Under the pieces are notes generated by a model, which worked only from the letters and a program-made list of their open reading frames with translations, did no database searches and was not told where the DNA came from. This document shows, piece after piece, positions 3,089 through 51,801 of a DNA stretch of 64,000 bases; position 1 is the first letter of the stretch, and each line of letters opens with the position of its first letter. The DNA is taken from positions 10,636 through 74,635 of the forward strand of contig JAXFQY010000045.1 of assembly GCA_034178705.1 (NCBI GenBank). The letters are read 5' to 3'. Source of the stretch: Eubacteriales bacterium. GTDB lineage: Bacteria; Bacillota; Clostridia; Oscillospirales; CAG-272. The translations under genes were made by a program, and so were the position numbers.

Positions 3089-5275
3089 ATGAAAAAGTTT
3101 ATTATAATTGTTTCCGTAATCGTTGCGGTGATCATCCTTGCCGACACCGCTTTCTACCGGTGGGGCGTCTATCTTGATTTTCAGCCGAACAAGCCGGTCA
3201 CGACCTTTGTTAAGACCGATGAGGATCAGCTCTATATCAACCGAGGAAACGGCTATGAGCCTTTTGAAATCAAAGGCGTCAATCTCGGCTCCGGAGAACC
3301 GGGGGAATGGTCTACGGATTTTGCCATTGACAAAAGCACTTATCTGCGCTGGTTCCGTTACATACAGGAAATGGGAGCCAATACAATCCGCGTTTATACC
3401 GTACAGGCGGATGATTTCTATAACGCCTTTTACGAATACAACAAGGATAACCCCGATCCTCTTTGGCTGATACACGGTGTCTGGGTAAATGATTACATCC
3501 AGAACTCTCGCCGCGACGCTTACGACAGTGATTTCTACGACGCTTTTCTGGAGCACTGCAAAACCGCGGTGGATGTAATCCACGGGAACAAAAAGATCTC
3601 CAACGGTCGCGCGGCATCCCAAGGTTCCGGAACCTACAACAAAGATATTTCCGCCTGGGTAATCGGCTATATTCTGGGAGTTGAATGGGAAGATGTCACC
3701 GTTGCCTACACCGATGAAAAATTCAAGGAAAAAAACGGCTATAACTCTTATGAGGGAGAGTACATGTACACAACGCAGGAAGCCTCCCCTTTCGAAGCCA
3801 TGCTTGCCCGTGTAGGGGATAAGGTTATTGCCTATGAATCCAAGCGCTATAAGCAGCAGCGGCTGGTTGCCTTCTCCAATTGGCCGACAACAGACCCTTT
3901 TGAATACCCCGATAATATCGAGAAGTTCTTTATGAAGTGTGCCGCGGTTGATGTCGAGCATATCCAAACCACAGAGGCTTTTTTATCCGGGCAATTTGCA
4001 TCTTACCATGTATATCCCTATTATCCGGACTATCTGAACTACATAGAAGATTGGACTTTCTTCGGAATTACCGACCTATCAGAGTTTCTGACCGAGGACG
4101 GAAAGATAAACACCTACCGCGCTTATCTCTCTCTGCTTACCGCACATCATACCATGCCCGTCGTCATTTCGGAATTCGGTGTCTCAACCGGCAGAGGAAT
4201 GGCACAGAAGGATCAGAACACCGGGCGCAATCAGGGAAACATGTCCGAAACCGAACAGGGGCAGGCACTGATCGACTGCTATGCCGATATCAAAGCGGTC
4301 GGCTGTGCAGGCTGCTGTGTCTTTTCCTGGCAGGATGAGTGGTTCAAGCGCACCTGGAACACGATGTATGCCGTGGATCTGACCCGAACTCCTTACTGGT
4401 CGGATTATCAGACAAACGAACAGTATTTCGGGCTCCTCTCGTTTGACCCCGGAAAGGAAACCAGCATCTGTTATGTCGACGGGAATGTCTCGGAATGGTC
4501 GGACGACGATCTTGTCTGGCAGAGCGATAACTGCAGTCTTTCGATGAAATATGATGAAAAATTCCTATACTTTCTGATCCGCAAAGACGGACTTGATTTT
4601 GAAAAAGAAACGCTCTATCTTCCGATTGATACCACAACAAAAAGCGGCAGCAGCTATTGTCGGAACTATGATCTGCTGTTTGACCGAGCCGTGGATTTTC
4701 TGCTGGTAATCGACGGTTCGGATAACAGCCGTCTGCAGGTGCAGGAACGTTATGAAAGTCTGCGCTCCACTTACTCGCAAAACGTATGGGCATTTGATAC
4801 CTATATCCAAGGTCATATCCCCGACATTGATTCTCCGTTGTTTGTCAACATTGATATGATTCTGCAAACAGCAACACCGCTGCTCTACCTGGACAACACT
4901 GCACCCGCCGAGGTATACGAAACCGGCAAGCTTACCTACGGGAATGCCAATCCCGACAGCAGTGACTATAATTCTCTTGCGGACTTTATTTGCAGCGGCA
5001 ACTATATTGAAGTCAAGCTTCCTTGGCAGCTGCTCAACTTCTCGGACCCGTCCAGAATGATGATTCATGACGACTATTACAGCGGAAATTACGGCGTGGA
5101 ATTCATCTCCCTTGACGAAATGTATGTCGGTCTTTCCTGCGGCAAGGAGAACGGGAGGATCTCGCTTTCCGCCGTGCCGCTGAAGGGATGGGGAAACCGG
5201 GTTCGCTATCATGAACGGCTGAAGCCCTCTTACTACATACTGCAAAGCGTCTGGAGTCAACCAAGTGAAAATTGA
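3089..5275 (+). CDS. Membrane-anchored TIM-barrel (clan GH-A-like) glycoside hydrolase/transglycosylase-like protein
   Basis: ORF 3089..5275, 14 nt after the CotH stop. One N-terminal TM helix (IIIVSVIVAVIILADTAF). Clan-A-like pattern: 'FEIKGVNLG', 'GANTIRVYTV', 'VVISEFGVSTG', 'FSWQDEWFKRTWN'. A long C-terminal beta-rich region follows. The GH family cannot be assigned by eye. Confidence 0.6.
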   Translation: MKKFIIIVSVIVAVIILADTAFYRWGVYLDFQPNKPVTTFVKTDEDQLYINRGNGYEPFEIKGVNLGSGEPGEWSTDFAIDKSTYLRWFRYIQEMGANTIRVYTVQADDFYNAFYEYNKDNPDPLWLIHGVWVNDYIQNSRRDAYDSDFYDAFLEHCKTAVDVIHGNKKISNGRAASQGSGTYNKDISAWVIGYILGVEWEDVTVAYTDEKFKEKNGYNSYEGEYMYTTQEASPFEAMLARVGDKVIAYESKRYKQQRLVAFSNWPTTDPFEYPDNIEKFFMKCAAVDVEHIQTTEAFLSGQFASYHVYPYYPDYLNYIEDWTFFGITDLSEFLTEDGKINTYRAYLSLLTAHHTMPVVISEFGVSTGRGMAQKDQNTGRNQGNMSETEQGQALIDCYADIKAVGCAGCCVFSWQDEWFKRTWNTMYAVDLTRTPYWSDYQTNEQYFGLLSFDPGKETSICYVDGNVSEWSDDDLVWQSDNCSLSMKYDEKFLYFLIRKDGLDFEKETLYLPIDTTTKSGSSYCRNYDLLFDRAVDFLLVIDGSDNSRLQVQERYESLRSTYSQNVWAFDTYIQGHIPDIDSPLFVNIDMILQTATPLLYLDNTAPAEVYETGKLTYGNANPDSSDYNSLADFICSGNYIEVKLPWQLLNFSDPSRMMIHDDYYSGNYGVEFISLDEMYVGLSCGKENGRISLSAVPLKGWGNRVRYHERLKPSYYILQSVWSQPSEN

Positions 5276-43246: not shown

Positions 43247-43276
43247 TTGACATCTCCTGACCTTCTGTGATAAGAT
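43247..43276 (+). promoter_or_regulatory. Sigma-70-type promoter (extended -10) for proS
   Basis: TTGACA (43247-43252), an 18-nt spacer, then TGaTAAGAT (43268-43276). It lies ~45 nt upstream of ATG 43322. Confidence 0.65.
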
Positions 43277-43321: not shown

Positions 43322-44764
43322 ATGGCTGACAACAAAAAAATGGTGGAGCAGATTACCTCAATGGATGAGGATTTCGCAAAATGGTACACCGATATCGTTA
43401 AAAAGGCAGAGCTTGCCGAGTACACCAGCGTAAAGGGCTGCATGGTTATCCGTCCGTACGGCTATGCGATCTGGGAGAATATTCAGAAAATTCTTGATGC
43501 CCGCTTCAAGGAGCTGGGACACGAAAATGTCTGCATGCCGATGTTCATTCCGGAAGGACTGCTGAACAAGGAAAAGGAGCATGTCGAAGGATTCGCTCCC
43601 GAGGTGGCCTGGGTCACCCACGGAGGCAGCGAAAAACTGGAGGAACGGCTCTGCGTCCGTCCGACCTCCGAAACCCTTTTCTGTGAGCATTATGCCAATA
43701 TTGTTCACTCCTACCGTGATCTTCCGAAGCTTTACAACCAATGGGTCAGCGTTGTCCGCTGGGAAAAAACGACCCGCCCCTTCCTGCGCACGCGCGAATT
43801 CCTCTGGCAGGAGGGGCACACGGTTCATGAGACCGCAGAGGAGGCAATCGCGGAAACCGAGCAGATGCTCAATGTGTACGCCGACTTCTGCGAGAAAGCG
43901 CTGGCCATCCCGGTTGTCAAGGGCAAGAAAACCGAGAGCGATAAATTTGCCGGAGCCGTCTCAACCTACGCAATCGAGGCAATGATGCATGACGGCAAGG
44001 CGCTTCAGGCAGCGACTTCCCATTATTTCGGAGACGGTTTTGCCCGTGCCTTCGGCATTGAGTTTACCGACCGCGAAAACAAAAAGCGCGTTCCCCACCA
44101 GACCTCATGGGGCTGCACTACCCGTCTGATCGGCGCGATTATTATGACGCACGGCGACAACAACGGTCTGGTTCTTCCTCCGGCAGTTGCGCCGGTTCAG
44201 GCAATTGTCATCCCGGTCGCACAGCATAAGCCCGGCGTTCTCGAGGCGGCGGAGCAGCTCCGTGCCGCTCTTGCCGCCGCCGGAATCCGCGCAAAGCTCG
44301 ACGCCAGCGAAAACAGCGCCGGCTGGAAGTTTGCCGAATATGAGATGAAGGGCGTTCCCGTCCGGATCGAGATCGGTCCGCGCGATATCGAAAACGGCTG
44401 TTGTGTCGCCGTTACCCGCCACAACGGGGAGAAAACCGTTCTCCCGCTTGCCAATATAGGGGATGCCGTCAAGGAAAAACTCACCGAGGTACGCGACGCC
44501 CTGTATGAAAAGGCTTTGCAAAACCGCGAAAGCCGTACCTACGACTGCTGCAGTCTGGAGGATATCCGCTCTGCTCTTGCCGAGCACGGAGACAGCTTTA
44601 TCCGTGCAATGTGGTGCGGTTCTCCGGAGTGCGAAAAGAAGGTCAAGGAGCTGACAGGGGTAGGTTCCCGCTGCATCCCGATGAACGCAGAGCCGAACGG
44701 AGAGACCTGTGTCTGCTGCGGCAAAAAAGCCGATACCCTCGTCCTCTGGGCCAACGCCTATTAA
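43322..44764 (+). CDS. proS: Proline--tRNA ligase (archaeal/eukaryote-like type)
   Basis: '[14 protein letters not shown]', 'RPTSETLF' and '[13 protein letters not shown]', with the characteristic C-terminal Tyr. Confidence 0.95.
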
Positions 44765-44788: not shown

Positions 44789-45910
44789 ATGAAACCGTTT
44801 GTCGCAACCATTCGCTCACGTTTGCGCGGGCTTGACTGGATTGTTCTCGGTTCGGTGCTCGCGCTTTCCGCTATCGGGCTTCTTACCCATTACGGAGCGC
44901 GCAGCGTCTATGGAACCTCGCGTTTTCTTATTCAGGCGTGCACGACGCTTTTCGGCATTGTCTGCATGCTCGTTATTTCCCTTTTTGATTATCAGGACAT
45001 CTGCGACAAGCTTTCCGTTCCCCTTTTTCTCTGTGGCGTCGGAGCATTGGTTCTCACCCTGCTGCTCGGCAGTGCCGGAGATTACGGAGGAAAAAGCTGG
45101 ATCCCCATCGGCCCCCTGACAATCCAACCTTCGGAATTTGTCAAGCCGATTCTGATCATGACGCTGGCAAAGCACATTGAGGTGCTGCGCCCGAAAATCA
45201 ACCATCCCTTGTCGGTACTCCGGCTGGCGGTTCATGCGGGTACGCTTTTCGCATTGGTAGTTCTGCAGGAGGACCTCGGCACGGCGCTGGTCTATCTTGC
45301 CATCTCCATCGCGATGATTTTCTCTGCCGGCCTGAGTCTTTGGTATTTTCTGATCGGGGGCGGGATCTGTGCTGTTGCCTTTCCCTATATCTGGCCGCGG
45401 CTCGGTGAATATCAGCAGAAAAGAATTCTTGTCGGCTTCAACCCGGAGCTGGATCCTACCGGCAAAGGACTGCAGCCTCTGATGAGCCGGAAAGCCATTT
45501 CCGCCGGCGGTTTTTTCGGACAGGGACTTGAGGGCGGCTCCCTCTTTGAAAAGGTTCCGATGGCAAACAACGATTTTGTCCTTTCGATCATTGGGGAAAA
45601 GTTCGGCTTTCTCGGCTGTATGATCGTCCTTCTGCTTTTCACCGTACTGATTATCCGCATTCTTGTCATCGCAATGCGCGCACGCAAGGACTGTGCTGCC
45701 TACATTGCCGTCGGTATTGCCGCGCTCTTCTTTGTACAGGTCACGGAAAACATGGGCATGGCGCTCGCCATGCTTCCGGTTATCGGTATCACGTTGCCCT
45801 TTCTCAGCTCGGGAAGCTCCTCCGTCCTTTCTCTTTATCTGACGATCGGCGTGCTGCAGAGCATCTGTACGCACGCGAAAAAATACCACTTTGAACGGGA
45901 AGCGGCATAG
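44789..45910 (+). CDS. SEDS-family peptidoglycan glycosyltransferase (FtsW/RodA/SpoVE)
   Basis: A ~10-TM protein with 'IQPSEFVKP', 'QEDLGTALV' and 'GITLPFLSSGSSS'. Which paralogue it is (FtsW, RodA or SpoVE) cannot be decided. Confidence 0.9.
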   Translation: MKPFVATIRSRLRGLDWIVLGSVLALSAIGLLTHYGARSVYGTSRFLIQACTTLFGIVCMLVISLFDYQDICDKLSVPLFLCGVGALVLTLLLGSAGDYGGKSWIPIGPLTIQPSEFVKPILIMTLAKHIEVLRPKINHPLSVLRLAVHAGTLFALVVLQEDLGTALVYLAISIAMIFSAGLSLWYFLIGGGICAVAFPYIWPRLGEYQQKRILVGFNPELDPTGKGLQPLMSRKAISAGGFFGQGLEGGSLFEKVPMANNDFVLSIIGEKFGFLGCMIVLLLFTVLIIRILVIAMRARKDCAAYIAVGIAALFFVQVTENMGMALAMLPVIGITLPFLSSGSSSVLSLYLTIGVLQSICTHAKKYHFEREAA

Positions 45911-45930
45911 TGCTCCCCGGGAAGGCAGCT

Positions 45931-46200
45931 ATGAAAATCAAAGAGGACTTTCTTCTCCGGGAAATCGCCGGTGAGCAGGTTGTGATCGCCGTCGGAAAAA
46001 CGGCAAAAAGTTTTAACGGGATGATCCGTCTGAATGATACCGGAGCATTTCTGTGGCAGCTCCTTGAGAAAGGCGCAAAGGAAGAAACGCTTGTCGCCGC
46101 CCTGCTTGACCGCTATGACACCGACAAAGAAACGGCACATCGTGATCTTGCCTCCTTTCTTGAAGCCGCCCGTGAAGCAGAGCTCCTTTGCGATGAATAA
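45931..46200 (+). CDS. PqqD-family protein (RiPP recognition element-like)
   Basis: An 89-aa product from ATG 45931 (GGGAAGG upstream). 'FLLREIAGEQVVIAVG...MIRLNDTGAFLWQLLEKGAKEETLVAALLDRYDTDKETAHRDLASFLEAAREAELL' fits the PqqD pattern: beta strands, 'LN-tg--iw', then a three-helix bundle. Confidence 0.8.
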   Translation: MKIKEDFLLREIAGEQVVIAVGKTAKSFNGMIRLNDTGAFLWQLLEKGAKEETLVAALLDRYDTDKETAHRDLASFLEAAREAELLCDE

Positions 46201-46660
46201 CGGATTCGACACGCCGGAAAGCCTGAATGACGCGCTCGACCGAGATGGCCTTGTCCTGATTTCCGGAAAAGGAACCAGCATGCTGCCGCTGATCCGTAAT
46301 TCCCGTGACCGGATCTGCATCCGGCGTCTCCCCCGTGAGCCGCGCCGCTACGATATTCTTGTCTACCGCACCTCCCGCGGACTGGCCGCACACCGTCTTC
46401 TTGCTTATTCTGCCGATGGCTGTCTGCTCTTATGCGGGGACAATCAGCTTCGGCCGGAACGGGTTTCCCGCGATAAAATTGTCGCCTATCTGCCCGGAAT
46501 GCTCCGGGGCGATACCTATCTTGATTTCGCAACCTCCCGCAAATACGCGCTTTATTGCCGTGTGTGGTGCTGCTCGCTCCTCCTGCGCCGCTGTTTTCTT
46601 TTCTTCCTCCGGCAAAGCCCCCTGTATAAAAGAGAAAAAAGCGCAGCATGCGCAGACTGA
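46193..46660 (+). CDS. S24/S26-family serine peptidase, Ser/His (SipW/Sec11-like) type
   Basis: ATG 46193 overlaps the PqqD stop by 8 nt. 'GKGTSMLPL' carries the nucleophile Ser, 'YDILVYR' follows, and 'AAHRLL' has His where LexA/SPase I have Lys. The C-terminal tail is Cys-rich and hydrophobic (YALYCRVWCCSLLLRRCFLFFL). No N-terminal TM helix. Confidence 0.75.
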   Translation: MNNGFDTPESLNDALDRDGLVLISGKGTSMLPLIRNSRDRICIRRLPREPRRYDILVYRTSRGLAAHRLLAYSADGCLLLCGDNQLRPERVSRDKIVAYLPGMLRGDTYLDFATSRKYALYCRVWCCSLLLRRCFLFFLRQSPLYKREKSAACAD

Positions 46661-46690
46661 CCGGTCTGCGCATGCTTTTTCTTTTGTTTC
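46645..46690 (+). terminator. Rho-independent terminator after the peptidase gene
   Basis: A 12-bp stem, GCATGCGCAGAC (46646-46657) / GTCTGCGCATGC (46664-46675), followed by TTTTTCTTTTGTTT. The stop codon lies inside the stem-loop. Confidence 0.8.
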
Positions 46691-46749
46691 AGGAACTTTC
46701 TTCCGGTTCCAGCGTCTAACAAACAGAAAACACACGAAAGGAGTCTTCC

Positions 46750-49700
46750 ATGAAACTTCTCAGACTGACAGCGATGCTGCTTTGCACCGCTATTCTCTGC
46801 CCCTTTCTGTTTGCCTGCGGGACAAAGCGCACACCCGTGCTTCTGCAGCACGGAGATGGCTTTCCCCTTCAGGGGAAACTGACCGGCTCGGGAACGCCCG
46901 GTTCCTCTCTGCCTGCAGAACTGTGCAACGTAACCGTAACGGCAGACAACGCATCCGGTCGCACGGTTCCCTGTGACACAGCATTTTCCCTGAAATTTGC
47001 TTCCCCCACAACAGAGAAAACCGTCGCGGAATATCTCCGTCTTTCACCCGATACCGCACTGAAGGTTACACGACTCTCTGACACCGAATACCGCGCTGTT
47101 CCGGAAGGAAAACTGGATCCCGATACGGTTTACCGGCTGTCGCTCGGCAAAGCAAATGCGCCGCAGATGTCCTTTGCTTTCCAGACCGAAAGTGTTTTCC
47201 GACTCCGCTCCACTCTTCCCGCCGACCTTGCAACCGCAGTCCCGGTCAACACGGGAATTGAACTCGATTTTTCCTCCGCACTTGCCACCGGAACCGATCT
47301 TTCCGATTATATTACCATCGAACCGGCATTATCTTTCCGTGCAGAGCTTTACCCGAACGGAAGAACACTTGCCCTGATTCCGTCGGACTATCTGAAAGAG
47401 AATACGGAATACACGGTTCGTATTGCTTCCGGGCTTCTCTCCGCTGCCGGGGAAACACTCGCGGAGGGAAAAACCATCCGTTTCCGCACCGAAGCGAAAT
47501 CGAAACTGATCCAGACCGAATCCTACTACCTTTCCCTGGAGCCGGATCAAACCACGGTTACCCCCGGAAACGCCGCTCAGTACAGCTTTTATTTCCGTTC
47601 GCGTGATGACGCAGTTCTGAAAAACGTCACGGCGGAAATTTACCGCTACCCCTCTCCGGAGAGCCTTGCCGACGCAATCCGAACCTATCTTGCTACCGGA
47701 ACAGAGCTTTCCGGCAATAATGCCTACTATGTCTACCCCACCGCAGGGCTGACGCGCGTAGCTAAAGAAAAACTGATCCCTCAGGCAGAAGCGGGAAGCC
47801 GCCTGCAGGTTCTGACCATGCCCCTTCTCGAAAGCGGTGCGTATCTCGTCAATCTGACCGTGGAAATCCGCTCCGGGCTGAAAACCTATACCGAAAAAAC
47901 ACAGCAGCTGATTCAGGTCACCCCCCTTTCCGCGTATACCGAGTACACCCAGAACGAGCTGCTCATTTGGACAGAAGAGGAGCAGACCTCGGTCAGCGCG
48001 GACTTCTTCCGGATGGACCGCGGCTTCTCCGTCAAAAACGAAGCGGCATCCTACACAACGATCTCGGCAGAGTGCGATGAAAACGGAATTGCCAAGCTTT
48101 CCTGCCCCGAAAACACCAGCGCGGCTCTGCTTACGGTATCAAAAGGCGAATCCACCCTCCTTCTCCCCGTCGGCTCCCTGTCGGAGACAAAGGGCGAAAG
48201 CCGCCGCACTTATGTCTTTACCGACCGTGAGGTCTATTTCGGAGATGATGTGATCCGTTTCAGCGGGTTTCTTCTTCCCGGGATCGGAGAGCTTCCGTTT
48301 CCGGATAAGCTCTGGCTTCAGGTATCGGAAAGCGGAGCAAAGTATCCGGTGAAAATTGAGCCGGACGGTTCCTTCTCCGGCAGCTATACGCTGGAGGGAA
48401 TCCGCTCATACAGTCTGCTGCTGCGATTCGTTGATGCGGACGGGAACACCGTAGCTTCCCGCTATGTCAGTATCACCGCAGACAGCAAGCCTGTTTACAC
48501 AGCCGCCCTCTCCTTTGACCGGCTTTTCTACCGTACCGGGGATACCGCCGTCATATCCGTCAGTGCTTCTTTCTTTGACGGTACTCCCGCGCCCGGACTT
48601 ACCTTCCGTATCCGCAGCCGGATCAGCGGCGGCAGCACAACCTCCTTTGATATCGTCACAGACGAAACCGGTGTTGCAAGCATTTCCTATCGTCTTCCGG
48701 CGGCCAATGCCGGCTCAACCGCTCCGATTTCCGTTTCGGCAGTGGCGGAGCTGATCGGAAACGAAACGACAACCCTTTATCTCTCTGCCAGTGCTCCCTA
48801 TCTCCATTCCGATTTCTATTTTACCGCCGGACGCACAGAGGACGGAAAAGCGCCGGAGCTTCGGTTAAACCGCGTGGACACCTCCGCGCTTCAAAGCAGC
48901 TCGGATCTGCTTTGGTCCGTGTTCCCGCAGAATACCGTCGGCACTGCGATGGAGGGCACAGCATCGGTTAAACTGTATAAAGTTTCTTATGTCAGGCGTT
49001 CGACCGGCACAACATACGATGCGGTTTCCAAGCTCTTCCGCGAAAACTATACCTATGACCGGCTTGAGGAATTGGTCAGCACGGAAATTCTTGCCTTCCG
49101 CGACGGAAAAATCCGACTGAAATCTGTCACGGCAGACAAGGATTTCAATGGGTATTACTACTACTCCGCAAGCTTTGGAAGATACACGCTTACAGTTTCC
49201 GCCGACGGCGGCAATATGTATCGGCAGGTTATCCCGGGCAATGTCTCTCTCGCCTCCGACAAGGAGCTGTACCGAACCGGGGAAACCATGACACTCTCCC
49301 TGAACGACGGACCGGAACCGGTCAGTGACCGCCGATGCCTTGTTACCGTGACCTGGAACGGAGGAAGAACCGTTCTGTTTACCGATGACGGGACCGTCCG
49401 CATTCCCTACGAAGCGAAATACATCAACGGGCTGAATATTTATTTCACTTTCCGGGAGGGGGCGGCCTACCGTTCTTACAATATCTCTCCCGGCTACGAA
49501 TATGCCGATGACACGATCACCCTTACCCTGACAACCGACAAAGACTCCTACAAGCCGGGAGAAACCGTCAGCGTCCGGCTGAGCGCGCGCCGTTCCGACG
49601 GCTCTCCGGCGGCAGGTATCCGTATTTGCCTTGCGGTCGTTGACGAGGCCTGCTTTGCCCTCGGTGATCAGCTCGTGGAAATTCAAAGACAGCTCTATGA

Positions 49701-51801
49701 GAGCGCGGTGAGACAACCTGCCGTTGCTGCAGACAGCCGGTTCTCCCTGTTCTGCAATCATGATTTTCTTTACGAGACCTATGCTCTTCGCACCGAAGCT
49801 GAGTGTGCAGATATAGCTTCGCCCTGCGAAACAGGCGGAACAAACGGAGAAAACTCCGGGGAAATCCGGATACGCAGCCTTTTCTCCAACACACCGGTCT
49901 TTGAAGGGATTCGTCCGGATCAAAACGGGCAGGCTGTTTTCACCTTTACCGCCCCCGATAATGTAACAACCTGGCGTCTGACTGCAATCGCAGTGGATAC
50001 CGCCGATCTGGAAGACGGCATTCCGGATTCAGGCTGCACAACCGGAAGCGTCGTTTCCACACTTCCCTTCTTTCTGAATGTCTCCTGTCCGGATACCTAT
50101 ATTGTCGGAGACGACATCACCGTGTCCGCGCGTGTGTACGGAAGTGAAGCGACCTCCGGAACGCAACTCAGCTGCACCGCTGAGCTGCTTGATGAAAACG
50201 GAAAGATTCTTGCACGGGACACCGCTTCCGGAAAGGTCGGTACCTTCCTCTTCTTCTCCTTTGGCAAACAGGAGGAAGGCAGTTATCGGATCCGTGTTAC
50301 CGCGCGTACTGCAACGAATGCTGACGCTGTGGAAACCGGTGTAACCGTGGTCCGATCCGCTGTGCTGGCAAAGATCACAAAGCTTCTGACCCTTGAAGAA
50401 ATCGGAAGCATCACACCGGCAAAGTATCCCGTCTCCCTTACCTTCTTCAGCGAACGCCAGAAAGGCTTCCTTGAGCTTGCCGGCAGACTCTCCCGCGGAG
50501 GGGAAAGCCGGTCCGACATACAGGCAGCAGCATACGTTGCCTCGATGCTCTTCAAAGCTTACTGCGGAACCGACGCAGCCGACAGCGCCGATTCGGTGCA
50601 ACGGAAAAGCACACTCAACAGTTCCTATGTCAACGGCGGACTGATCAGTCTTCTCCCGTACAGCCAGGGGGATCTGAAGCTTTCCGCTCTGCTTGCCGCC
50701 TGCTGTCCTGATGCCCTCACAGAGTCTACCAAGGACACCCTGCGTGCCTCCTTTGAAAACACGCTGAAGCAGAAGGACTGCACCGAAGAGGAGCTGGTCT
50801 ATTCCCTGCTCGGTCTTGCCGGCGTCGGTGCGCCCGTACTGACCGATCTTTGTGCCGTTGCCTCTGCCTGCTCCGCTTTCTCAACGGAAGGCAAGCTTAT
50901 CCTTGCTGCTGCCTTTGCCGTCATCGGAGATTATCCGGCAACAGAGGAAGTTTACAGCACACTCCGCGGTGAGCTGTTCCATCCCTCTGCCGCAGAACAC
51001 GAGGCGTATTTTGCGCCCGAAGCCTCCTCCACCGAGGATCGGCTGTCTCTGACTGCTGCCGCGCTTCTCTCTGCCTCTGTCGTGGCCCGGGAGGACGCCG
51101 CTCTCTATGTTCGATACCTCTCCGCTCACACTTCCCGTCTGGACTCCTATAACGCACAGCTTGCCTTCTATCTCTCCCGCTACATTCCTTCCGACTCCGC
51201 AGAGCTCACCTTTTCCTGTGTACTCGGCGATGAGGAAAAAACCGTAACGCTCCGGGCGGGAGAGGCCTGGAACATCACGCTGACAAAGTCTGAGCTTGCT
51301 TCCTTTTCCGTCCGGACAGACAGCAAGGATCTGCGCGTTCTCGCGGGATATACCGGAGATATCGAAGAAGCGGTGGCTGACACCGAGGAATCGGAGGAAT
51401 TGGAAATCACGAAAACAACCGTCTCCCGGGGCAACGGAATCTATCTGGTCACGGTTTCCTATCGAATCACCACGGATCGCACCAACGCGTGCTTCACAAT
51501 CAGCGACACAATCCCAAGCGGTGCCCGTTACCTGCGAGAGAACACCTCACGGACAGGCGACAAGTATTCCTGCCTCTGGCTTTCCAACTCCGGACAGACC
51601 ATGAGCGGTGTGCTCTGCTGCTGGAATCCGAACAGTGAAACAGCGATCACAGGGTTAACCAGCCGCACCTACTCCGGCAGCTTCTCCTATTCAATCCGAA
51701 CAGCAATTCCGGGTGAATACATTTCCGAGGCTGCCGTGGCACGCAATACGGCAAGCGGCAGTTATGCGGTAAGCCAGCGGGAAACGCTTATCCTGAAATA
51801 A
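46750..51801 (+). CDS. Alpha-2-macroglobulin-family lipoprotein (1683 aa), no thioester motif
   Basis: Lipoprotein signal MKLLRLTAMLLCTAILCPFLFACG. Repeated MG/Ig-like beta domains. 'ICLAVVDEACFALGD' and 'SLFSNTPVFEGIRPDQNGQAVFTFTAPDNVTTWRLTAIAVD' are classic A2M-domain blocks. I scanned all Cys residues by eye and found no CxEQ. Confidence 0.8.
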   Translation: MKLLRLTAMLLCTAILCPFLFACGTKRTPVLLQHGDGFPLQGKLTGSGTPGSSLPAELCNVTVTADNASGRTVPCDTAFSLKFASPTTEKTVAEYLRLSPDTALKVTRLSDTEYRAVPEGKLDPDTVYRLSLGKANAPQMSFAFQTESVFRLRSTLPADLATAVPVNTGIELDFSSALATGTDLSDYITIEPALSFRAELYPNGRTLALIPSDYLKENTEYTVRIASGLLSAAGETLAEGKTIRFRTEAKSKLIQTESYYLSLEPDQTTVTPGNAAQYSFYFRSRDDAVLKNVTAEIYRYPSPESLADAIRTYLATGTELSGNNAYYVYPTAGLTRVAKEKLIPQAEAGSRLQVLTMPLLESGAYLVNLTVEIRSGLKTYTEKTQQLIQVTPLSAYTEYTQNELLIWTEEEQTSVSADFFRMDRGFSVKNEAASYTTISAECDENGIAKLSCPENTSAALLTVSKGESTLLLPVGSLSETKGESRRTYVFTDREVYFGDDVIRFSGFLLPGIGELPFPDKLWLQVSESGAKYPVKIEPDGSFSGSYTLEGIRSYSLLLRFVDADGNTVASRYVSITADSKPVYTAALSFDRLFYRTGDTAVISVSASFFDGTPAPGLTFRIRSRISGGSTTSFDIVTDETGVASISYRLPAANAGSTAPISVSAVAELIGNETTTLYLSASAPYLHSDFYFTAGRTEDGKAPELRLNRVDTSALQSSSDLLWSVFPQNTVGTAMEGTASVKLYKVSYVRRSTGTTYDAVSKLFRENYTYDRLEELVSTEILAFRDGKIRLKSVTADKDFNGYYYYSASFGRYTLTVSADGGNMYRQVIPGNVSLASDKELYRTGETMTLSLNDGPEPVSDRRCLVTVTWNGGRTVLFTDDGTVRIPYEAKYINGLNIYFTFREGAAYRSYNISPGYEYADDTITLTLTTDKDSYKPGETVSVRLSARRSDGSPAAGIRICLAVVDEACFALGDQLVEIQRQLYESAVRQPAVAADSRFSLFCNHDFLYETYALRTEAECADIASPCETGGTNGENSGEIRIRSLFSNTPVFEGIRPDQNGQAVFTFTAPDNVTTWRLTAIAVDTADLEDGIPDSGCTTGSVVSTLPFFLNVSCPDTYIVGDDITVSARVYGSEATSGTQLSCTAELLDENGKILARDTASGKVGTFLFFSFGKQEEGSYRIRVTARTATNADAVETGVTVVRSAVLAKITKLLTLEEIGSITPAKYPVSLTFFSERQKGFLELAGRLSRGGESRSDIQAAAYVASMLFKAYCGTDAADSADSVQRKSTLNSSYVNGGLISLLPYSQGDLKLSALLAACCPDALTESTKDTLRASFENTLKQKDCTEEELVYSLLGLAGVGAPVLTDLCAVASACSAFSTEGKLILAAAFAVIGDYPATEEVYSTLRGELFHPSAAEHEAYFAPEASSTEDRLSLTAAALLSASVVAREDAALYVRYLSAHTSRLDSYNAQLAFYLSRYIPSDSAELTFSCVLGDEEKTVTLRAGEAWNITLTKSELASFSVRTDSKDLRVLAGYTGDIEEAVADTEESEELEITKTTVSRGNGIYLVTVSYRITTDRTNACFTISDTIPSGARYLRENTSRTGDKYSCLWLSNSGQTMSGVLCCWNPNSETAITGLTSRTYSGSFSYSIRTAIPGEYISEAAVARNTASGSYAVSQRETLILK

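Follow-up and report, generated by a model that had tools for sequence, protein, structure and literature searches.

In a 64-kb stretch of DNA from a Eubacteriales bacterium (referred to in its entirety as the window), two overlapping genes at positions 45931 to 46660 encode a discrete RiPP recognition element (RRE; RiPP, ribosomally synthesized and posttranslationally modified peptide) and a small serine peptidase. With a probability of roughly three in four, we regard the pair as a functional, RRE-guided leader peptidase of the LppB/LppS type whose substrate is encoded elsewhere. LppB and LppS are components of the linear polyphosphorylated peptide (LPP) clusters of Bacillota, and the locus is a reduced, kinase-less, and precursor-less variant of the LPP leader-processing module that has become fixed in a housekeeping operon.

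LPP clusters were defined in May 2026 (Popov et al., Nat Commun; PMC13381572), with Paenibacillus alginolyticus DSM5050 as the model host. They comprise a precursor, LppA, with the leader YxxPxVLxHQxIxFETxxS; an HprK-like kinase, LppK, which polyphosphorylates core residue Ser3; a discrete RRE, LppB; a SipW-like leader peptidase, LppS; an MsbA-like exporter, LppD; and a nucleoside triphosphate (NTP) transferase of the PF14907 type, LppN. Leader cleavage by LppS requires LppB, and the LppS mutants S29A, H68A, and D93A showed no activity. In the crystal structure of LppB with the leader (PDB 9X8Z), N33, Y60, D70, and F74 bind the YxxP motif. Without phosphorylation, the precursor was cut poorly by LppS in vivo, but detectably in vitro. 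The clusters are mobile, embedded in capsule loci, and show a patchy, horizontally transferred distribution. The published analysis covered 199 mostly Bacilli proteins and focused on the main similarity cluster; a few clostridial sequences are listed in its Supplementary Data 1, where they are confined to small clusters outside that analysis (PMC13381572).

The first gene of the pair (45931 to 46200, plus strand; stop codon at 46198 to 46200) codes for 89 amino acids. The ATG at 45931 was taken as the true start rather than a GTG upstream at 45910, because all homologues start with MKIK. As proposed in a preliminary description of this DNA, the product is a PqqD-family RRE: it matched Pfam PqqD (PF05402) with an E value of 5.9e-19 and 68.6 bits (cutoff, 23.4), covering profile positions 1 to 67 of 67. 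Searched as a single sequence, it had the lasso B1 protein TbiB1 as its top PDB match (E = 1.9e-7), and the NCBIfam lasso_PqqD models were matched with E = 5e-9 and 36 bits, i.e., far below their cutoffs of 70 to 80. A profile of the RRE family matched both crystallized LppB (PDB 9x8z_B; E = 3.9e-6) and TbiB1 (E = 3.1e-10). The numbering of the LppB construct could be mapped to that of the publication because all eleven named pocket residues coincided at an offset of 18. Residues N35, Y62, D72, and F76 of the window RRE aligned with LppB N33, Y60, D70, and F74, respectively; N35, Y62, and D72 were invariant in 20 clostridial RREs, and F76 was conserved. Since D70 of LppB hydrogen bonds the leader tyrosine, a YxxP-type leader is predicted as the ligand of the window RRE.

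The second gene (46193 to 46660, plus strand; ATG at 46193) codes for 155 amino acids and, as described previously, overlaps the first by 8 nt (46193 to 46200; ATGAATAA, read from the sequence), which suggests translational coupling of the two genes. Its product matched Pfam Peptidase_S24 weakly (E = 0.019; 15.1 bits, under the cutoff of 23.3). Homologues numbered 152 at an E value of ≤1e-3, and the family alignment and profile were built from 26 of them. K26-G-T-S29-M-L-P, H67-R68, C-G-D83-N-Q, and E89 were invariant in the 26-sequence alignment. This succession of a Ser box, a His-Arg box, and a GDN box is the pattern of SipW/Sec11-type signal peptidases (MEROPS S26B). A search of PDB sequences with the family profile aligned human SEC11A (7p2p_A) over the HRV...GDN boxes, but gave only this non-significant match (E = 1.3), and homology was therefore established through LppS (WP_029196374.1, sequence from Supplementary Data 1 of PMC13381572). 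The family profile aligned with LppS at a probability of 98.1% (hhalign; E = 1.1e-13, 113 columns), with S29/S29, H67/H68, D83/D87, and E89/D93 as pairs (window/LppS); pairwise BLASTP gave an E value of 1e-7. The nucleophile of the GTSMLP motif and the histidine base, both named in the preliminary description, thus align with catalytic residues of LppS.

An AlphaFold2 model of the peptidase (pLDDT, 84.8; pTM, 0.73) consisted of an amphipathic N-terminal helix (residues 8 to 18), a beta-barrel core, and two C-terminal helices, and its top Foldseek matches in the PDB were the clan SF peptidases SipA, LexA, UmuD, the lambda cI C-terminal domain, and SpsB. Together, the invariant motifs, the AlphaFold2 and Foldseek results, and the homology to LppS secure the LexA/signal-peptidase fold, which had been proposed as an S24/S26 fold. 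Also in line with the preliminary description, the protein has no hydrophobic N-terminal anchor (mean Kyte-Doolittle hydropathy of residues 1 to 25, -0.29), and the basic, Cys/Arg-rich C-terminal tail (maximum 19-residue hydropathy, 1.32) is less hydrophobic than a classical transmembrane segment. A cytoplasmic or peripheral location is predicted for the peptidase. Its family profile retrieved at least 5,694 clusters at 90% identity (E ≤ 1e-3) from gut and rumen metagenomes, a lower bound for which 8,000 candidates were scored.

The genomic context of the family was surveyed by exact-protein look-ups and a scan of 185,579 species-representative genomes. The scan yielded 106 loci (cited below by L numbers), of which 80 were kept at species level; nearly all of these were labelled as metagenome-assembled genomes (MAGs) of gut or rumen Clostridia (Oscillospiraceae, Lachnospiraceae, Ruminococcus, and Ruminiclostridium). 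A PqqD gene was situated directly upstream of the peptidase gene in 60 of the 80 loci, mostly with the same 8-nt overlap. Upstream of PqqD, about half of the loci encoded a protein of ∼235 amino acids with a GxGKST P-loop and weak similarity to ScmC and to kinases related to HprK (TIGR04249, with E values as low as 5e-11). NTP_transf_5 (PF14907) was present in 21 loci and an MsbA-like ABC exporter in 11. At L036 (7242 to 8399), a single open reading frame (ORF) of 385 amino acids combines an HprK/ScmC-like domain (hidden Markov model [HMM] E value, 3e-83) with an LppS-like peptidase (Pfam S24, residues 253 to 329), a fusion which is further evidence for a functional kinase-peptidase link. Small-ORF clustering followed by an HMM search identified 15 precursor-like peptides beside these genes. 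Their leader, MKKYxxPEIEIxxFxTEDIITxS, parallels the published YxxPxVLxHQxIxFETxxS, and their cores were variable, being either acidic and Gly/Thr-rich or Cys-rich.

These data bear on the alternative that the enzyme is an ordinary S24/S26 protein, i.e., a SipW-like type I signal peptidase or a self-cleaving protein of the LexA/UmuD type, whose gene adjoins that of a PqqD protein by chance. The fold indeed matches those of LexA, UmuD, and signal peptidases, and NCBI names the homologues "S24/S26 family peptidase." However, the membrane anchor needed by a signal peptidase of exported proteins is missing at the N terminus, and the NCBIfam signal peptidase I model (sigpep_I_bact) was matched with 13 bits, below its cutoff of 47. 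The general base is His, in contrast to Lys in LexA and UmuD, and there is neither a DNA-binding domain nor an internal cleavage-site region. In addition, the coupling to an RRE gene by overlap in the 60 loci and the kinase fusion in L036 argue against a chance neighborhood. This alternative is therefore extremely improbable, and both a LexA-like autoprotease and a general signal peptidase were rejected on account of the missing anchor, the His base, and the RRE coupling.

In the proposed mechanism, the PqqD-fold RRE would bind the leader of a ribosomally produced precursor at a [Y]xxPx[V/I/L] motif, with the leader taken up as an added beta-strand. The leader tyrosine would be held by Asp72 and the proline kink by Asn35 and Phe76. 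The SipW/Sec11-like peptidase, soluble or peripheral, would then receive the leader end from the RRE and may dock via its N-terminal helix. Cleavage would employ Ser29 as the nucleophile, His67 as the general base, and Glu89, assigned by alignment, as the acidic third residue. The published T(-1) site and the clostridial leaders would, by analogy, place the cut after the conserved ...I-I-T, just before x-S. We infer the activity of the pair, as well as a substrate with a YxxP leader encoded in trans, from these comparisons. The preliminary description had likewise suggested leader-guided processing by an RRE and a Ser/His protease, and the LppB/LppS homology, the retained catalytic and leader-binding residues, and a selected stand-alone architecture in six loci (see below) agree with it. 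It had also considered such a module undescribed. Since signal peptidase I (SpI)-like, RRE-dependent leader peptidases were published in May 2026 (PMC13381572) and the mechanism that it had suggested is essentially the one demonstrated there, this is no longer true.

None of the tested RiPP partners was found in the window. A tblastn search with four query proteins revealed no ScmC/HprK-like kinase in the 64 kb (best E, 0.075), and searches with proteins of the relatives gave no window match at E ≤ 0.01 for NTP_transf_5 (LppN type) or an MsbA-like ABC exporter (LppD) and found no radical SAM enzyme in the 64 kb. An HMM of the LPP-type leader (hmmsearch --max, E ≤ 10) recovered the 15 precursors elsewhere, but none in the window or at the loci of its closest relatives (the clade defined below). 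A regular expression for a YxxP start, applied to all start codons of the window and the six clade loci, returned out-of-frame noise and no credible or conserved candidate, and none of the proteins neighboring the pair has a YxxP motif near its N terminus. With regard to lasso B2 and C proteins, the Pfam annotation of the clade loci (∼10 kb on each side) contained no Asn_synthase or transglutaminase genes, and the single Asn_synthase match among the scanned window ORFs was a weak secondary match on MnmA. The earlier statement that the pair lacks a RiPP partner thus stands for the tested partners and leader within the 64 kb; it does not extend to the family, most of whose members have the pair in a RiPP cassette together with a kinase gene and, in some cases, genes for an NTP transferase, an exporter, and a YxxP-leader precursor. 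Because LppS cut the unphosphorylated precursor poorly in vivo but detectably in vitro, it is plausible, by analogy, that a kinase-less pair could work on its substrate.

The pair appears to be part of a longer transcription unit. It is preceded by a prolyl-tRNA synthetase gene, proS (43322 to 44764, plus strand), which matches a 480-aa ProRS gene of the relatives with the domains tRNA-synt_2b, HGTP_anticodon, and ProRS-C_1, and by a gene of the shape, elongation, division, and sporulation (SEDS; RodA/FtsW) family (44789 to 45910, plus strand; Pfam FTSW_RODA_SPOVE, E = 4.1e-77). As had been noted, the latter ends 20 nt before the RRE gene, and the pair is closed by a strong intrinsic terminator (46645 to 46676, plus strand; 14-bp stem with 8 G-C pairs and a 4-nt loop, followed by TTTTTCTTTTG). 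In a promoter and terminator scan, this was the sole strong plus-strand terminator, and the sole promoter-like site upstream on the plus strand was located at 43247 to 43276, before proS. A proS-rodA-lppB-lppS unit with proS as the first gene is therefore likely. An Rfam scan of the window for a T-box or another RNA leader of the proS operon gave no matches, and such a leader was rejected. Given this probable cotranscription with proS and rodA, and because genes for LppK, LppN, LppD, and LppA are not adjacent, the pair most likely acts on one or more precursors encoded elsewhere. The RodA/FtsW-family gene provides the operon context of the pair; its adjacency does not imply a functional link.

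Downstream, a gene for an alpha-2-macroglobulin (A2M)-like lipoprotein of 1683 amino acids follows (46750 to 51801, plus strand; Pfam Big_5, MG2, A2M, A2M_BRD, and MG4). It is a conserved positional neighbor of the pair. SEDS glycosyltransferase and A2M-like lipoprotein genes flanked the pair at every clade locus (44789 to 51801 in the window), an arrangement that recalls the A2M-PBP1C pairing in Gram-negative bacteria. About 25 further window ORFs, a subset of all, were scanned against Pfam and were mostly of housekeeping or signalling type, including PolA, a PASTA kinase, RsmB, NifS/NifU, NadA, and MnmA, while three had no Pfam match. A 728-aa ORF at 3089 to 5275 had no Pfam match at E ≤ 1e-5, and a 728-aa protein without a Pfam match was also encoded at L001 (18260 to 20446, minus strand).

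The closest relatives of the window form a clade of six species-level loci (the window, L001, L017/L018, L097, L098, and L099), in which the peptidases are 46 to 52% identical to the window copy. ProRS, RodA, RRE, peptidase, and A2M genes are arranged on one strand, and genes for TruB, AspRS, a lipoprotein of ∼480 to 500 amino acids, alanine racemase, and a small membrane protein on the divergent strand. The ProRS-RodA-pair order was matched in L001, L097, L098, and L099, and the A2M gene was located downstream at all clade loci; the preliminary description had asked whether the pair is conserved next to SEDS or A2M genes, and in this clade it is. No HprK-like kinase, NTP transferase, exporter, or recognizable precursor was detected within ∼10 kb at the clade loci. 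From sequence pairs with unsaturated dS (0.57 to 0.97), the ratio of nonsynonymous to synonymous substitution rates (dN/dS) within the clade was 0.07 to 0.09 for the RRE gene and 0.09 to 0.16 for the peptidase gene. Both genes are under purifying selection. The conserved arrangement and the purifying selection indicate that the bare pair is a maintained, functional state in this clade, and it is neither an assembly artifact nor a fresh deletion. The concern that the pair had merely been split from a known RiPP cluster is thus justified as far as the family belongs to a known RiPP type, but not for the clade itself, where the pair consistently stands alone in a housekeeping operon.

The same data address the alternative that the pair is a decaying remnant, left without function after an LPP-like cluster had lost its kinase, transferase, exporter, and precursor. 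Gene loss is frequent, as indicated by the variable architectures and many partial sets among the relatives. Flanks of 4 kb or more on each side were available for 44 loci, which were scored for RRE (B), kinase-like protein (K), NTP transferase (N), exporter (D), and precursor (A): B and K alone were present in 16, B alone in 5, the full BKNDA set in 4, and other combinations in 19; reduced sets are therefore common in Clostridia. However, a dN/dS of 0.07 to 0.16, invariant catalytic residues, and conserved leader-binding residues speak against decay. Moreover, intact reading frames, the 8-nt coupling, and the operon position were kept across peptidases as divergent as those of the clade. Loss of function is accordingly very unlikely.

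A further alternative holds that the module was domesticated, i.e., that the Oscillospiraceae-like clade recruited the pair to process a housekeeping or cell-envelope protein (for instance, one linked to RodA or A2M) or a secreted or regulatory peptide. The strict conservation of the ProRS-RodA-pair-A2M arrangement at six species-level loci, the strong purifying selection on the pair, its probable cotranscription with proS and rodA, and the absence of a nearby kinase, exporter, or precursor would all fit such a role. On the other hand, the RRE retains exactly those residues that recognize a YxxP leader, and no neighboring protein carries this motif near its N terminus. Adjacency is weak evidence in itself, and a peptidase predicted to be cytoplasmic or peripheral is difficult to reconcile with an exported lipoprotein such as A2M as its target. 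We therefore consider domestication quite unlikely. Slightly less so, though still unlikely, is the broader idea that the pair has been separated from natural-product biosynthesis, has become fixed in the proS-rodA operon next to the A2M gene, and works without phosphorylation, acting in trans as a general leader peptidase on scattered YxxP-leader peptides or processing a cell-envelope or regulatory protein. If true, this would be the first case of an RRE-protease pair in a housekeeping role.

Several observations weigh against our assignment of the pair as an LppB/LppS-type leader peptidase. Identity to LppS is just 22%, and the third catalytic residue is Glu (E89) rather than Asp, its catalytic role being assigned from alignment alone. 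The window RRE on its own matched LppB weakly (E = 0.14), and TbiB1 was matched better. No LPP-type or YxxP-leader precursor was found in the window or within ∼10 kb of the pair in the clade relatives, and there is no kinase, while LppS of the model system cut the unphosphorylated precursor poorly in vivo. Finally, the pair shows stable vertical synteny within a housekeeping operon, unlike LPP clusters, which are reported to be patchily distributed and horizontally transferred, a contrast that also favors domestication.

A canonical HPr kinase/phosphorylase (Hpr_kinase_N and Hpr_kinase_C, 313 amino acids) was encoded just downstream of A2M in two clade members (L097, 15980 to 16921; L099, 16600 to 17541), which is of note as the LPP kinase missing from the clade pairs is HprK-like. 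This gene was absent from the window; it was set aside as a kinase partner and regarded as probably coincidental synteny. Genes for aminoacyl-tRNA synthetases or their paralogues repeatedly adjoined the cassette: apart from ProRS in the window, a GluRS/GlnRS-type gene (L012, 803 to 4140), ArgRS (L015, 3292 to 4992), and a HisRS-like gene (L009, 7565 to 8692) were observed, which may be due to chance.

Clostridial precursor genes were located at L044 (11304 to 11486), L052 (3936 to 4118), L054 (3748 to 4038), L055 (12004 to 12216), L060 (5032 to 5214), L061 (695 to 880), L070 (26 to 298), L075 (1943 to 2140), L078 (962 to 1186 and 1476 to 1616), L080 (760 to 924), and L095 (4030 to 4197). An NCBIfam scan of ten of these precursors assigned no family and gave only weak matches to Cys-repeat and lasso_cyano models. 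The two precursors of L078 are Cys-rich and adjoin a truncated radical SAM gene and an ABC transporter, which, judged from its N-terminal sequence, probably has a peptidase domain; the MKKYxxPEIEI-type leader may therefore be common to several pathways. A hybrid cluster with a radical SAM enzyme (PF04055, E = 3.6e-13) was observed in two Lachnospiraceae MAGs (L067, 4348 to 7530; L074, 5299 to 8423), in the order NTP_transf_5 (on the opposite strand), PqqD, radical SAM enzyme, a 47-aa Cys-rich precursor, HprK-like protein, and LppS-like peptidase. The conserved precursor, MDSKKKYVAMDMEILEIDERDIITKSNCYDCGCNEPGECEKDYQYNP, has the same leader type as the clostridial precursor family. The LPP publication (PMC13381572) makes no mention of radical SAM enzymes.

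In 15 species loci, a protein of ∼219 amino acids was encoded directly upstream of the kinase-RRE-peptidase genes (L009, 4282 to 4938; L005, 8648 to 9289; and 13 more). Its N-terminal region is hydrophobic and probably spans the membrane, the protein matched neither Pfam nor NCBIfam models, and a homologue is absent from the window. As the protein also lacks an N-terminal YxxP leader, it was rejected as a candidate for a long precursor. In another set of loci (L005/L024, 9289 to 10471; L072; L082; L084; L087; and L093), the HprK-like and peptidase genes overlap directly, and PqqD is missing between them (architecture -K---). Here, either the RRE would be encoded elsewhere or recognition would be independent of an RRE.

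Gut and rumen Clostridia carry the LppS-like module in great abundance, beyond the 199 published proteins, and it occurs in architectures that the published work did not analyze: kinase-only sets, hybrids with radical SAM enzymes and Cys-rich cores, a kinase-peptidase fusion, and the bare pair. Genes annotated as "S24/S26 family peptidase" or "hypothetical protein" can now be named as LppS-like leader peptidases. The stand-alone, selected pair represents a simple system in which to ask whether the protease requires phosphorylated substrates and to look for its trans-encoded substrates, and it could reveal the reuse of RiPP machinery for a housekeeping task. The locus broadens a very recent finding to include a far larger family in Clostridia, and it provides a clean orphan case rather than a new principle.

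Compared with known systems, the window peptidase shares the G-x-S-M-x-P Ser box, the His-Arg box, and the G-D-N box with SipW/Sec11/SPC18 (MEROPS S26B, archaeal/endoplasmic reticulum-type signal peptidase I). It differs from them in that it lacks an N-terminal transmembrane anchor that would hold its catalytic domain outside the membrane, and the sequence similarity of its family to these enzymes is non-significant on its own, as seen with SEC11A. By analogy with LppS, an enzyme of the window type would depend on an RRE adapter, whereas SipW/Sec11-type enzymes recognize the h-region of a signal peptide.

The split lasso leader peptidase likewise comprises a discrete RRE (B1) that binds a YxxP leader and hands it to a separate protease (B2), and the best PDB and NCBIfam matches of the window RRE are lasso B1 proteins. 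In contrast, the window protease is a Ser/His enzyme of clan SF, while B2 is a transglutaminase-like Cys protease; no lasso cyclase accompanies the pair, and its lasso_PqqD score falls well short of the cutoffs. The SynChlorMet, GeoRSP, and HPr-rel-A cassettes (TIGR04248-9, TIGR04302, and TIGR04352-5) also combine a PqqD-family chaperone with an HprK-related/ScmC protein, and the kinase-like neighbors in the relatives weakly match TIGR04249 (ScmC) and HprK_rel_A. However, all scores were far below the cutoffs, and those cassettes are built around radical SAM/SPASM enzymes and lack an S26-like peptidase.

The LPP clusters differ from the window in their gene content, LppK, LppN, LppD, and LppA being absent from its 64 kb and from ∼10 kb around the clade pairs, and in their mobile, capsule-embedded setting as opposed to a conserved proS-rodA operon. 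The window also stems from a gut Clostridia lineage, whereas the published analysis dealt with its main similarity cluster. Nevertheless, in both systems a discrete PqqD-fold RRE adjoins a SipW-like peptidase of ∼150 amino acids without an N-terminal anchor, the catalytic Ser29 and His occupy matching positions with an acidic third residue aligned, and the YxxP-leader residues of the RRE are retained in the window. The relatives of the window, in turn, show the pair together with the kinase, NTP transferase, exporter, and precursor set of the LPP clusters.

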